Assembly: GCA_965203055.1 (NCBI GenBank)
Contig: OZ241863.1
Coordinates: 2,656,001 to 2,720,000 of the forward strand
From: Spirochaetia bacterium
GTDB taxonomy: Bacteria; Spirochaetota; Spirochaetia; SZUA-6; Bin103
Direction: 5' to 3'
DNA length: 64,000 bases
The notes under the pieces: generated by a model
The model's database searches: none
Seen by the model: only the letters and a program-made list of their open reading frames with translations
What the model was told of the DNA's origin: nothing
Translations under genes and position numbers: made by a program
In this document: in pieces, positions 42,668 through 46,596 of the stretch
Layout of the letters: each line of letters opens with the position of its first letter
Position numbering within the stretch: position 1 is the first letter of the stretch

Positions 42668-42877
42668 TTAGCGGGGCGCGGCCTGCTCCGCGCCGTCGGC
42701 CGAGTCGCGTTTGAAGGCGCGGTAGGTCTGCTCGTCGATGCCGGTGGCGGACCGGATCACCGGCCACCCGAATCCCGCCCGCAGCAGCCCGTCGATGGTC
42801 TCCAGCCGGCCCTTAAGCTCACCCTCTTGCCGGCCCTCCCGGCGGCCTTGTTGCTTGATTTCCTCGAGGTAGTTCAT
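42668..42877 (-). CDS. Putative nested in-frame small protein (RpnS-type antitoxin), 69 aa
   Basis: Internal AAGGAG-5 nt-ATG (RBS 42883-42888, ATG 42877) in frame with rpn, just before the EG-repeat tail. Confidence 0.65.
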   Translation of the reverse strand: MNYLEEIKQQGRREGRQEGELKGRLETIDGLLRAGFGWPVIRSATGIDEQTYRAFKRDSADGAEQAAPR

Positions 42878-43633
42878 CGCGTCTCCTTCCGGTCCCGGTA
42901 TCTGCCGCTGCAGTTCCTTCGCAAATCGCCCCCGCAACGGTTCCCTTTGCGTCGCCAGCACGTACCACACGAACATGCTCTGCTCCCCACCCCCGCGGCG
43001 CGCCAGTTCCGCCAGCAGCGGCAGCGCCCGCTCCAACGCCGGCCATGCCACCGCCGCCCGGTATACCGCCAGCATCATCAGCTGCGCCAGCCGCCCCTTC
43101 AACTTGCCCCGCACCCCTTCCGGATCCGTCTCCGAATGGTCGATCAGCACGTGCTCGAAGCTCGGCAGCCACCGCCACCCGCGCACCTCACGCGGGAACA
43201 ACTCCGAAAACTCGGTCGCGTAGCGCCAGCGTCCGCTTCCCAGATAGAACACCATCGGCACGATCGGGCGCAACTCCGTCTCCGCAGGATAGCGCCGCCG
43301 GTCGCGGTCCCAGATCCGGCAGCAGTACTGCAACAGCCGCAGGCGCATCCAGCGGTCACGGCGCCGCACCGTGGACTGATGCTCCAGCAGCACGTACAGC
43401 CAGGCCGGCGCGCCGCCCGCGCGGCGCCGGATGGAGTACAGCAGATCAGACTCGGTGGCGCGCAGGTCCGGGGCGATGAAGGAGCTGTTCTCGGCGGCCA
43501 GGGTGGACCACTCCAGGCCGTTGGCGATGGCCGGCGGCAGATGCGCGCGCAGCAGGCCGACCGCCTCGGCGGGTTCGCCGAACACGGCGCGGAACAGGTT
43601 GTCGTGCGGCTGCGCCAAGTCGTCGTTCGCCAT
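42668..43633 (-). CDS. Rpn family recombination-promoting nuclease / YhgA-like (Transposase_31)
   Basis: PHDNLFRAVF, SFI..DL..ESDLLYS, LYVLLEHQS, PMVFY.G..W, C-terminal QGRREGRQEGELKG. Confidence 0.9.
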   Translation of the reverse strand: MANDDLAQPHDNLFRAVFGEPAEAVGLLRAHLPPAIANGLEWSTLAAENSSFIAPDLRATESDLLYSIRRRAGGAPAWLYVLLEHQSTVRRRDRWMRLRLLQYCCRIWDRDRRRYPAETELRPIVPMVFYLGSGRWRYATEFSELFPREVRGWRWLPSFEHVLIDHSETDPEGVRGKLKGRLAQLMMLAVYRAAVAWPALERALPLLAELARRGGGEQSMFVWYVLATQREPLRGRFAKELQRQIPGPEGDAMNYLEEIKQQGRREGRQEGELKGRLETIDGLLRAGFGWPVIRSATGIDEQTYRAFKRDSADGAEQAAPR

Positions 43634-44039
43634 GCTTCAGACCAGTTCCCCGCTGCCCGCGGGGCGCGGCCTGCGCCGTGCCCGGGGAGCAATCGCGTCC
43701 GAGACGCCGCGGCGGTGCGAGTCCCGCGGGCCGGCGCGGACGCCGGCGGTGGCCGCCGCGAGACCGGTAAACACCAAGCGGATCAGATAATCGTGGTGGG
43801 GCTGACACAGGAGCGGTATCATCTCTCTGACTGTTACTACGGCGCGGCGTCCGCGCCGCTTTTCTGTTCGGGCGAACTCGTGGAAGGAAAATCGCACGCC
43901 TGCGGCGGCAGGCAGACGGGGACTCCGGTCACTCGCCCCCGCCTACCTGCACCCGAAGCTGCTGGCCGGCCAGGGTCTGGCGCGCCCAGAACAGGTTCTG
44001 GCTCGCGTCGTTGCCGCCCGCCGCCAGGTTCGCGGTGCC

Positions 44040-44960
44040 GGTCGCGTCGGTGCCGCCACTCGGCGCCGCCGTAAAGGTCACGCTCGGGGCGGTCACGTAG
44101 CCGCTCCCCCCGTTGGTGATCCTCACCGACCGGATGACGTATTCAAAGACCGCGGTGCCGACCGCCGTGGTGCCGCCGCTCGGCGCCGCCGAAAAGGAGA
44201 CGGTGGGGGCCGAGGTGTAGCCGCTGCCGGGGTTGGTGACCGTCGCCGTCGGGACGGCGTAGGCCATCACCGCGGTGGCGGTCGCCCCGCCGCCGCCGCC
44301 GCCCGAAAAGGAGACGGTGGGCGCCGAGGTGTAGCCGCTCCCCGCGGTCCCGGCCGTCACCGAGCCGACCCCGTAGGCCATCACCGCGGTGCCGGTCGCC
44401 GCGGTGCCGGACGCCGGCGTCGAAAAGGTCACGGTGGGGGCCGAGGTGTAGCCGCTCCCCCGGTTGGTCACCGTCACCGATCCTGCCCCGTAGACCACGC
44501 TGGCGGTGGCGGTCGCCCCGCTGCCGCCGCCGCCGGAAAAGGAGACGGTGGGCGCCGAGGTGTAGTCACTCCCGCCGTTCGTGACCATCGCCGACGCTAC
44601 GCCGCTTTGCAGCACCGCGGCGCCCCTTGCCTCCCAACCAACGCCGCCCGGCGAGGCTGAAAAGGTCACGGTTGGGGTAGACGTGTAGCCGCTCCCCGGG
44701 TCGTGATCGTCACTCCATCTACCCTGGAGTTCAGCATCACCGCGGTGCCGGCCGCACCGCCGCCGCCGCCGGTAAAGGAGATGGTGGGCGCCTCCGCGTA
44801 GCCGGCGCCGGCGGTCGTGACGTTCACCGAACCGACGCCGAAGCCGCCCGCTACGGCGCCGATTGCCTGCGTCCCGCCGGCCGGCGGCGCCGACAAGGTC
44901 ACGCTGGGCGCCGAAGTGTAGCCACTGCCCCGCTCGGTAATCGTGACCGACTCGACGGTG
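44040..44960 (-). repeat. Eight intragenic repeats of about 40 aa ([17 protein letters not shown]...G..A.ATA)
   Basis: Recurring GGCGCCGAGGTGTAGCCGCT-like DNA motif at roughly 120-bp spacing. Confidence 0.9.
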
Positions 44961-45486
44961 TCCGAGGCGCCCGACTGATCCGGGGCGGTGAGCACCAGCA
45001 CGATCGCGCCCGCGCTCACTTCGGCGCCAACCGTCCACTGCGCGCCGCTGAGGTCGCCCGCGAAGGCCGGCGCGGTCGCCGTGCTCGTGAACGGCAGCTC
45101 GTTGCCGCCAATCGACACGCTCACCTTTTCGCCCTCGACGCCGGTGAGCCCGTCCCAGGCGAACGGCTCGGAGCGGATCGTCAAGGCGCTCGGGTCCGCT
45201 GCGGCGGGCAGCGGCAGCGCCGATGACCAGGCATCCTCCCCGAGGGGCCAGCTCTTCGTGGCCGGCGCCGGAGTCGGGGCTGGCGGAGTCGGGGCCGGCG
45301 TGGTCGGCGACCCGCCATTGCCGCCGGCGCCGGTACCGCCGGTTGCTGGCGGCCGGGCCGCCTGCTGGCACGCCAGCAGGGCGACGCCGGCGACTACCGC
45401 CAGCGCCGGGAGCGCGGCCTTGCAGAATCCTCCTTTGACCTTCGCCGGCGGAAGCTGCCGAGGTCGGCCCGAACTCTTCGGTCTAT

Positions 45487-45496
45487 GGGGGGGGGG
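45487..45496. repeat. G10 homopolymer (C10 on coding strand)
   Basis: Longest mononucleotide run noticed in the window; lies about 10 codons after a GTG start. Confidence 0.9.
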
Positions 45497-45717
45497 TAAG
45501 CGCTAGCTTGTTGTTGTTACCGGTCACTTGAAGTCCTCCGAAACTGAGACAGACGCCGCCAAGGCGGCCCGGCCAACGCCCGCGAGATGGCGGATCAGCG
45601 GCAAAGGCTGGATTCGACGTTCCACCAGTGGAACGCATGCGTTTCAGTATCGGCGTCGGTCGAATCGGTGTCAACGCAGGGTGCGAACGCCGCGCCCGGC
45701 CATGCTATGGTGTAGCG

Positions 45718-46596
45718 ATGAACCGCCTGCTCGCGGCGCTGCGACAGGAGCGCCCGTTGCAGATCGCCGGCGCGGTCAACGCCTACGCCGCGCTGCTGGC
45801 GCAGGACGCCGGGTTTCGCGCGCTCTACCTGTCGGGCAGCGGCGTGGCGAGCGCCTGCTTCGGCCTCCCGGACCTTGCCTTGACCACCCTCTCGGAAGTG
45901 GCCGCGGAGACGCGGCGGATCACCGCGGCGACGGAGCTGCCGCTGCTGGTCGACGCCGACACCGGCTTCGGCGACGGGCTCGGCATCGCGCGCATGGTGC
46001 GCGAGCTGACCCGCGCCGGCGCCGCCGGGGTGCACCTGGAGGATCAGGCGGCGGCCAAGCGCTGCGGCCACCGCCCGGGCAAGGAGCTGGTGAGCGGCGC
46101 CGAGATGGAGGAGCGCATCGCCGCCGCGGCCGCGGCGCGCGGCGGCGGCGGCCTGCTGCTCATGGCGCGCACCGACGCGCTGGCGGTGGAGGGGCTGGAG
46201 GGCGCCGTGGAACGCGCCCGCGCCTACGCCGCGGCGGGAGCCGACGCGATCTTCTTCGAGGCGGCGCGCGAGCTGCGCGACTACGCCCGGGTCGCCGCCG
46301 CGGTAGGGGTGCCGGTGCTGGCCAACATGACCGAGTTCGGGGTGAGCCCGCTGTTCACCCTGGCCCAGTTGCGCGACCATGGCGTGGCGATGGTGCTGTA
46401 TCCGCTCACCGCGTTCCGCGCCATGAGCCAGGCCGCGCAGCGGGTGTATCGGGCGCTGCGGGCGGACGGCGGGCAGCATTCTGTGCTGGACGAGCTGCAG
46501 CCGCGGAGGGAGATGTATCGGGTGCTGAACTACGAGGCGTACGAACGCCGGATGGACGCGCTGCTGCGGCGCCGTCGAGCGGGGGGCGCGCGATGA
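45718..46596 (+). CDS. prpB: 2-methylisocitrate lyase
   Basis: YLSGSGVA...GLPDL, LLVDADTGFG, HLEDQ..AKRCGHRPGK, ARTDA, LANMTEFG. Confidence 0.95.
   Translation: MNRLLAALRQERPLQIAGAVNAYAALLAQDAGFRALYLSGSGVASACFGLPDLALTTLSEVAAETRRITAATELPLLVDADTGFGDGLGIARMVRELTRAGAAGVHLEDQAAAKRCGHRPGKELVSGAEMEERIAAAAAARGGGGLLLMARTDALAVEGLEGAVERARAYAAAGADAIFFEAARELRDYARVAAAVGVPVLANMTEFGVSPLFTLAQLRDHGVAMVLYPLTAFRAMSQAAQRVYRALRADGGQHSVLDELQPRREMYRVLNYEAYERRMDALLRRRRAGGAR

Follow-up and report, generated by a model that had tools for sequence, protein, structure and literature searches.

A poly-C tract between the start codon and the signal peptide of a spirochaetal lipoprotein gene: a probable contingency switch captured OFF

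Introduction

Why should a ribosome-binding site and start codon be cut off, by a run of ten identical bases and a stop codon, from the lipoprotein signal peptide that follows them? This arrangement is found on the minus strand at positions 45368..45540 of the window, the 64-kb stretch of DNA analyzed here, which covers positions 2,656,001-2,720,000 of one 4,557,819-bp contig (G+C 68.75%) of a Spirochaetia bacterium. An earlier note, made from the letters of the sequence alone, had proposed that the run is a phase-variation switch hidden from the gene track, a contingency locus caught in its OFF state. From comparison with paralogs in the same genome, with related genomes, and with public metagenomic contigs, we conclude that the locus is probably a slipped-strand contingency switch (translational phase variation) and that the assembled copy is OFF. 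Support for this reading is comparative rather than direct, and the state of this particular copy, which carries a second frame break downstream, has to be weighed separately from that of the family to which it belongs.

Results

A poly-C tract separates the start codon from the signal peptide

All coordinates are window positions. Because the locus lies on the minus strand, the tract reads C10 in the direction of the gene and G10 on the plus strand. From 5' to 3', its elements are as follows.

45646..45674, minus strand: predicted sigma-70-type promoter, TTGACA-17 nt-GATACT (10/12 matches, 0 in 50 shuffles), of putative function
45617..45636, minus strand: 8-bp hairpin at the 5' end of the leader, present in the paralogs in a version 38 nt longer
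45535..45539, minus strand: Shine-Dalgarno sequence GGAGG, 7 nt ahead of the GTG, identical in paralog 3281683 and a weaker GGAG in other copies
45483..45527, minus strand: leader open reading frame (ORF) as assembled, GTG, VTGNNNKLALTPPP, TAG; the start position is kept among paralogs, with GTG/ATG exchange
45487..45496, minus strand: poly-C10 tract (G10 on the plus strand), an exact 10-nt run and the slippery element, with in-frame lengths 9, 12, and 15
45368..45484, minus strand: basic linker and lipoprotein signal peptide with the lipobox LLAC (Cys at 45370-45368), aligning with the signal peptides of the paralogs

Re-reading the sequence bore out the arrangement originally described: GGAGG (45539-45535) stands 7 nt ahead of a GTG codon (45527-45525), and the leader ORF that this codon opens has 14 codons, V T G N N N K L A L T P P P, ending in a TAG (45485-45483) directly after the tract. 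Since the GTG lies 31 nt ahead of the tract, reading in frame into the signal peptide requires a tract length that is a multiple of 3 (9, 12, or 15). With C10 the frame meets the TAG at once, and with C11 it ends 30 codons later. Removing one C or adding two leaves it open for 272 codons, to a TGA at 44668-44666, so that the post-tract frame is that of the listed ORF 44666..45184; the lipobox lies at codon 39 of this 272-codon frame. The claim that a C9 or C12 tract would lead into the lipobox LLAC and on into this ORF is therefore upheld.

No ATG, GTG, or TTG occurs in the signal-peptide frame between the tract and the hydrophobic core, and the only in-frame CTG sits within the core itself. 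The earlier statement that this frame has no start codon between tract and lipobox thus holds as far as the hydrophobic core, and the wider point that the signal peptide has no start of its own stands for the sub-type represented here; it fails for most sister copies, which have their own ATG ahead of the signal peptide (see below). Two further potential start codons upstream, TTG 45674 and ATG 45638, share the frame of the GTG and leave the phase logic unaffected.

The predicted promoter is the only promoter-like site, is kept in the closest paralogs and in the related genome G011, and would start the transcript near 45638. The tract begins 150 nt downstream of it and should hence be transcribed. 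The possibility of a structured regulatory leader was dropped, the 269-nt leader fold being not more stable than shuffles (z = +0.93), and an Rfam search over 45300-45800 with E values up to 1 gave no match.

The tract is neither a chance run nor a consensus error

The C10 tract is the sole homopolymer of at least 8 nt in the window. Across the genome, C/G runs number 84 at a length of 7 nt, 8 at 8 nt, and 41 at 9-26 nt, a bimodal distribution. Extending the log-linear trend of lengths 4-8 gives an expectation of 1.66 runs of at least 9 nt against the 41 found. In a third-order Markov simulation no run exceeded 10 nt, a length reached by 5 runs, with a further 16 at 9 nt.

Public sequencing runs were compared as contigs, not reads. 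In runs X1 (depth 98.6) and X2 (17.9), from two studies, contigs reaching more than 40 nt past the tract in either direction agree with the assembly at G10, showing 0 differences and 0 gaps, and their depth is that of the organism (about 100 in the unique regions for X1 and about 20 for X2); X1 is possibly the source sample of the assembly and so perhaps not independent of it. The tract is real, neither chance nor consensus error, and G10 is its majority state in at least two studies. Both the assembled genome and the majority sequence in these two studies are thus OFF. Metagenome contigs at JGI gave 0 matches, both to the pattern of the surrounding 5' cassette with a variable gap over the tract and in a scan for the lipobox region.

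The tract belongs to a 5' cassette shared by a family of lipoprotein genes

The 5' region of the gene is repeated in the genome as a cassette of promoter, Shine-Dalgarno sequence, start codon, a few codons, poly-C, and lipoprotein signal. Nine lipoprotein loci, here called family A, have a tract at the same place, with lengths of C10, 10, 10, 12, 14, 15, 16, 17, and 20, followed by near-identical signal peptides (...AALLALAAVIGIALLAC). Four of the nine are in frame with the upstream start (3281683 with C15, 2515961 with C12, 1278063 with C14, and 1280465 with C17), and five, the window copy included, are out of frame. The closest copies share TTGACA-17-GATACT, a leader of about 110 nt, the 5' hairpin, the Shine-Dalgarno sequence, and an aligned start position, the start codon being GTG in most copies and ATG in 2515961.

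Two relatives display what an ON form of the window copy could look like. Paralog 3281683 (L009:378-2729), with C15, is in frame and encodes an intact protein of 783 residues with no internal Met, consisting of the signal, a Gly/Pro/Thr linker, a domain of about 110 residues, and about 14 repeats of about 38 residues. A protein from another assembly, P0001, found in a collection of 5.8 billion proteins, is in frame (MTGNNNTLALTPPPHKPK...LLAC) and 76% identical to the post-tract ORF; it reads MTGNNNTLALTPPPHKPKDSGRPRQLSPAKVKGKTCKAALL...LLAC, that is, upstream start, three-proline stretch, and no internal Met. In most sister genes an ATG (MSGKAALL...) is retained from which a canonical signal of 21 residues would start; the window copy, 3281683, and P0001 have lost this ATG.

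The leader is also found outside the lipoprotein family. A leader cassette with GTG, a few codons, and C14 precedes a non-homologous gene for a multi-pass membrane protein of 650 residues (4311938; G000:C1:4311854-4313903, where G000 denotes the source genome), for which Pfam returned nothing. That the same leader stands before an unrelated gene indicates a switch module not tied to one gene family. Decayed family A leaders occur at G000:C1:3819396 and 3360938, where the C runs behind the word AAGYTAGCGCTYA are interrupted (TGGCCTCCCCC, TGCCTCCCCCC).

Tract length varies between species within conserved flanks

Forty-one genomes, G000 and 40 relatives, were searched for the cassette, and among them G011 was the only relative with strong matches. 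An N-terminal alignment scan of species-representative genomes agreed, yielding nine paralogous loci in G011 and one 20-residue match elsewhere. A homopolymer is present in this relative too, as a comparison proposed in the earlier note would have it: eight of the nine G011 loci have a poly-C of 15-31 nt ahead of the signal peptide and one is without a tract. Among the eight, five are in frame, two are out of frame, and one is ambiguous. In all four cross-species pairs compared, the tract differs in length (14/20, 10/18, 10/15, and 20/18), although the 100 nt flanking it to either side are 87-100% identical. Judged from these alignments, such length variation within conserved flanks is the signature of a fast-mutating repeat that has been retained in place.

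The sub-type comprising 915268, L037, and L038 has no alternative start over about 70 codons, and L038 is in frame behind AGGAGG-8 nt-ATG, which supports a coding use of the tract. A different layout is seen at L032 (tract 1476-1498) and L034 (tract 1440-1462) of G011, where the long leader is absent and a C23 run follows an ATG located 8 nt after the -10 box, the tract starting about 15 nt after that box. The mRNA of these two loci may be leaderless, with the tract in the second to ninth codons.

About 50-100 nt of the leader (the hairpin, then ...ctcgcgggcg.tggc...gtctgtctcag...) recurs in intergenic DNA of the relatives, at loci L015-L020, L025, and L029-L031 (G001, G006, G008, and G019-G022), for example ahead of ABC-permease operons and mostly with no homopolymer nearby. 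This dispersed repeat may be the source from which the cassette leader derives. C/G runs of at least 12 nt occur in 27 of the 41 genomes, with 19 of 23 in the family of the organism and 7 of 17 in the remaining families of its taxonomic order. Overlapping matches and poly-C at the contig ends of fragmented assemblies raise these figures, which are only a hint that long runs are common family-wide.

The predicted lipoprotein, its export, and a second frame break

Downstream of the signal peptide, the gene is divided between two frames and is followed by an unrelated gene.

44669..45367, minus strand: mature lipoprotein part 1, with the Gly/Pro/Thr linker, the conserved N-terminal domain of about 110 residues, and the first repeats of about 38 residues; 66% identical, across 315 alignment columns, to residues 17-330 of the intact 783-residue paralog
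44694..44700, minus strand: second frame break (also placed at 44697), CCCCGGG on the plus strand with 1 nt missing, at the junction where about 200 repeat residues are absent relative to the paralog
43929..44714, minus strand: mature lipoprotein part 2, in the other frame, 261 codons with more repeats, the conserved C-terminal tail, and a stop; 83% identity to residues 532-783 of the 783-residue paralog
42668..43633, minus strand: YhgA-like gene (Rpn family, Transposase_31), downstream of the lipoprotein; PF04754, E = 1.4e-38

A lipobox is defined by [LVI][ASTVI][GAS]C behind a hydrophobic core and a basic n-region, and LLAC stands in exactly this setting. The genome also encodes the lipoprotein-processing proteins Lgt (PF01790, 215.6 bits) and LspA (PF01252, 110.8 bits), both genes without internal stops. 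Counted from the GTG, the lipobox Cys of the fused precursor would be residue 53 with C9 or 54 with C12, close to its place in the naturally ON relatives (54 in P0001 and 55 in 3281683); in sister copies started at the internal ATG it is residue 21. Pfam and NCBIfam searches with the intact 783-residue paralog and with both window pieces found no family, the ESM Atlas gave no usable match for the lipoprotein, and a sequence search of the PDB returned only a chance-level match (E = 0.0077). An AlphaFold2 model of the N-terminal 234 residues of the mature protein, from a 24-row alignment, is beta-rich, with a mean pLDDT of 52.1 and a pTM of 0.31, too poor for a fold search.

The ORF behind the tract ends at 44666 because of the 1-nt break at 44694-44700, past which the gene runs on in another frame for 261 codons to 43929. 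Aligned with the 783-residue paralog, the first 265 residues of the window copy correspond to residues 17-330 and the last 255 to 532-783, and the one-base frame change falls exactly at the junction of the repeat deletion. When ON, the assembled copy may therefore yield only a truncated lipoprotein of 283 residues, unless the break is a minority or assembly state. No stretch of 20 nt or more in the flanks of the break recurs in the genome, and contigs with a frame-restoring additional G are present in X1 (depth 138.8), X2 (24.4), and a run from a third study, X7 (46.1, against about 19 for the unique regions of the organism in that run); depth at this site adds in contigs of paralogs and relatives, many of them repeat-derived, so that the share of the broken form is unreadable from these figures. 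The window copy may be a live short variant, with the break as a minority or assembly state, or a decaying member of the family.

Proteins from other assemblies (P0002, P0003, P0004, and P0009) likewise end in a wrong frame after 1-nt changes in short G/C runs, which sit in the repeat motif 'xGSGYT', as does the break at 44694-44700. These short runs are either a second class of indel hot spots or the site of a recurrent assembly error.

The YhgA-like gene has 96 matches in the genome, roughly 40 of them near full length. One copy, 96% identical, lies downstream of 3281683 and a distant one downstream of 2515961, so the gene has been duplicated together with the lipoprotein paralogs. Genes of this recombination-promoting nuclease type may travel with the repeat lipoprotein genes or reshuffle them.

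Long tracts across the genome

Most of the 41 long runs are found at the beginning of long ORFs that encode exported or secreted proteins. A Pfam scan of 16 tract-linked ORFs identified SBP_bac_5 four times and SBP_bac_1, a CotH-like protein, Peptidase_M30, and a giant protein with He_PIG, as well as an OppC permease and a methyltransferase. Another set of lipoprotein genes, here called family B, has nine copies with a poly-G directly after the lipobox, and the protein collection holds both in-frame (…PAQGGGGKPPS…) and truncated (MGGGGRPPSE…) calls of its members. When the tracts are oriented as poly-C, 22 of the 41 are immediately preceded by a TA dinucleotide (CTTA, TTTA, GCTA, TCTA, CCTA, ATTA, GATA, and TATA), far above what composition predicts and partly a result of paralogy within families A and B. 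Loss of mismatch repair was rejected as the source of the tracts, MutS and MutL both being present without stops.

Discussion

A model for the switch

We propose that the locus probably works as follows. The tract would be a hypermutable element within the opening codons of a surface lipoprotein gene that belongs to a multigene family and is transcribed from the sigma-70-type promoter about 150 nt upstream. Translation would begin at GTG 45527 behind GGAGG and run through 10 codons before reading the tract as prolines. Were the tract a multiple of 3, the ribosome would continue through the basic linker, hydrophobic core, and lipobox, and the repeat lipoprotein would be made, exported, and lipidated. 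At other lengths translation would stop early, and OFF should be tight because this sub-type has lost the internal ATG kept by most sister genes. Slipped-strand mispairing at replication would often alter the tract by one or a few bases, so that a population would mix ON and OFF cells. Use of the GTG, export of the long precursor, and the rate and reversibility of switching at this locus are the presumptive parts of the model.

What is expected of a contingency locus is largely found. The repeat is of a hypermutable kind and far over-represented (C10, among 41 runs of at least 9 nt where 1.66 are expected), and it lies between the presumed start codon and the body of the ORF. ON and OFF forms both exist in nature for the family (4 of 9 loci in frame in G000, 5 of 8 in G011, and P0001 as a further in-frame form), not for this exact locus. 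The proposal of a contingency locus in its OFF state is accordingly sustained by the family cassettes, the variable tracts, and the in-frame paralogs, and falls short at the window copy itself, where no ON length is seen and a second frame break follows.

Several observations weigh against the proposed switch. An in-frame tract length is seen in 0 of 4 runs, again judged from contigs: X1 and X2 have G10, X7 has G11 in both bridging contigs (one additional G, 27.4 of 27.4 depth), and X9 is without a listed insertion. The X7 contigs carry 4-6 other differences and may come from a related strain. A further apparent allele of the locus, P0027, 96% identical over the quarter of the query that it covers, points to C11 together with one additional base about 20 nt beyond it, but its contig is rich in 1-nt indels and frame changes, so that its C11 may be noise and is not relied on here. 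Lengths of long tracts taken from assemblies may in general be off by one. With MutS and MutL intact, no repair defect would boost slippage. The PROSITE PS51257 rule for lipoproteins places the Cys within about 15-35 residues of the N-terminus, and residue 53 or 54 of the fused precursor lies outside this range, which makes export of the precursor the more conjectural. The assembled copy has lost about 200 repeat residues along with its frame at 44694-44700, and the ratio of nonsynonymous to synonymous substitution rates (dN/dS) behind the break, 0.65-0.79 as compared with 0.47-0.49 between intact paralogs, is a weak hint of relaxed constraint. Finally, in sister copies with their own internal ATG the tract may act differently.

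Alternative explanations

The most serious alternative concerns this copy rather than the family: the family would be phase-variable, with this paralog a pseudogene fixed OFF and its tract a functionless relic. The second frame break with its repeat deletion, the exclusively OFF lengths in all four runs, and the raised dN/dS behind the break all speak for decay, as do the existence of decayed cassettes with interrupted tracts at 3819396 and 3360938 and the lack of an intact ortholog of the short form among 19 longer homologues, the best of which is 58% identical. However, the tract in the window is free of interruptions, the 272 and 261 codons contain no stops other than through the frame change, and dN/dS in the N-terminal domain, which ranges from 0.29 to 0.84, is 0.29 against the closest paralog. 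The flanks of the second break are unique, yet the frame-restoring contigs in X1, X2, and X7 come near organism depth, which indicates that an intact downstream frame exists in populations. On balance we regard a fixed relic as unlikely. At the other extreme, a plain consensus error, in which the true tract would be G9 or G12 and the 5' end of the gene intact, is scarcely credible. Homopolymers are the commonest site of assembly error, and the second allele, P0027, derives from an indel-rich contig; G10 is nonetheless reproduced without a difference or gap in the X1 and X2 contigs of two studies, and 40 other long tracts occupy equivalent positions in genes. Such an error had been named at the outset as what would undo the proposal, and it is largely ruled out by these contigs.

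The tract might instead act by means other than the frame. It would then belong to a 5' leader or upstream ORF, the true start would lie elsewhere, and what it tunes could be transcription, the stability of the mRNA, or translational coupling. The internal ATG of most paralogs, which gives a canonical 21-residue signal, fits this idea, as do the sub-type 1848431/L035, in which a Shine-Dalgarno sequence and ATG of its own directly follow the tract, and L032 and L034 with their tracts so close to the -10 box. Moreover, in five of six copies with an internal ATG (2515961, 1280465, 1934289, 1848431, 1278063, and G011 L032), one of the OFF leader frames ends in an ATGA overlap with the in-frame ATG that precedes the signal peptide; in 1934289 the overlap is with the first of two ATGs, and in the sixth copy the leader ORF ends 5 nt before the ATG. 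These overlaps suggest translational coupling or re-initiation, and possibly a three-state switch, though only as a lead: they represent few independent events, because the 'ATG A..' codons are shared by descent. At the window locus there is no ATG, GTG, or TTG for such a start between tract and hydrophobic core and the promoter lies 150 nt upstream, while the sub-type of 915268, L037, and L038 lacks an alternative start altogether over its 70 or so codons and includes the in-frame L038. A role outside the frame is thus very unlikely here. Still less probable is recoding, whereby the G10 form would be expressed through RNA-polymerase slippage or through +1 ribosomal frameshifting on CCC before the TAG. 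Both slippage on long runs and +1 shifting at CCC-N are well established, and the C10 is indeed followed by an immediate zero-frame stop codon, but the relation of frame to tract is not conserved, with sisters directly in frame (C12, C15, and P0001) and lengths ranging from 10 to 31, and no stimulatory Shine-Dalgarno-like element stands directly ahead of the run. A relation this variable is the pattern of mutational switching and not of a conserved recoding site. Two named arrangements were also considered and rejected: a programmed ribosomal frameshift of the prfB type, since several homologues are in frame and a conserved out-of-frame pairing of slippery site and stop is not what is seen, and a promoter-spacer switch of the tp0126/tpr type of Treponema pallidum, since the tract lies 150 nt past the sole promoter-like site.

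A portable and perhaps three-state module

The slipped-strand switch favored above could be one version of a more general device. In its full form, this would be a module of about 190 nt of leader (promoter, hairpin, Shine-Dalgarno sequence, start, a few codons, AAGYTAGCGCTTA, and poly-C) that may have been put before unrelated surface genes by recombination. Such a module could have three states: in one frame, the proline leader would be fused to the signal peptide; in another, the ATGA overlap could hand the ribosome over to the gene's own ATG, giving the canonical precursor; and in the remaining frame, the gene would be OFF. The window copy would then be a derived, strictly binary version that lost the internal ATG, within a set of about 40 phase-variable genes in a sponge symbiont (a phasome), acting on lipoproteins and solute-binding proteins and perhaps directed against host phagocytosis or phages. 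Taken with all its parts, we consider this joint picture doubtful, and quite unlikely to hold as a whole.

Relation to known systems

The organism turns up in sponge and marine metagenomes of seven studies. Almost all known cases of random switching at simple repeats come from animal pathogens and commensals whose genomes are small or low in GC. Among the papers listed by a literature search, none ties phase variation or contingency loci to sponge symbionts, and one concerns a shipworm symbiont. Here, about 40 tracts lie on genes for lipoproteins, ABC solute-binding proteins, and other exported proteins, in conserved cassettes that recur in a sister species. If the switches are live, surface variation through contingency loci is part of life inside a sponge, with evasion of host recognition and phagocytosis, escape from phages, and nutrient bet-hedging as possible roles. 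In practical terms, gene callers will systematically miss or truncate such genes in metagenome-assembled genomes, and the tracts are ready markers for strain-level population studies.

The closest parallels are drawn here from excerpts of the papers cited. Poly-G/C tracts within surface-protein ORFs cause translational phase variation in Neisseria meningitidis (hmbR and hpuAB), Campylobacter, and Helicobacter (PMC3786947, PMC8355987, PMC2823697). As far as these excerpts go, the present case shares with them a G/C run within the ORF near its 5' end, ON/OFF change by one base, tens of loci, and surface or secreted targets. It differs in the host, an uncultured, sponge-associated member of the Spirochaetia with about 69% GC rather than a low-GC animal pathogen, in the placement of the tract within an added leader ahead of the signal peptide, in tract lengths of up to 26-31 nt, and in the presence of MutS and MutL. 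The 5' poly(A) tract of Listeria monocytogenes inlA, where a frameshift gives a peptide of 8 residues (PMC2831843), offers a second parallel in its excerpted description: a homopolymer in the very first codons, with a short peptide (8 residues in inlA, 14 here) replacing a surface protein. That system involves poly(A) and a single gene in a Gram-positive pathogen, whereas poly(C), a multigene family, and a shared cassette are found here.

Among spirochaetes, T. pallidum carries poly-G tracts of about 7-11 nt that vary within isolates in the promoters of tprE/G/J, tp0126, and tprL and act on transcription (PMC7864442). The likeness lies in a spirochaete as host, in G homopolymers, and in a link with surface proteins, in T. 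pallidum putative outer-membrane proteins; in contrast, the tract described here lies behind the start codon and 150 nt past the predicted promoter, and the proteins are unrelated.

In the Vlp and Vaa systems of Mycoplasma and in the opa genes of Neisseria (CTCTT), the frame or expression of the gene is governed by a simple repeat located within or ahead of the stretch that codes for the signal peptide. Like the present family, these are multigene sets whose products are repeat-rich lipoproteins or surface proteins and whose 5' regions are conserved. They differ in using poly(A) or pentamers in small, low-GC genomes, and no sequence kinship is to be expected. The mechanism is thus already known; the host is new.

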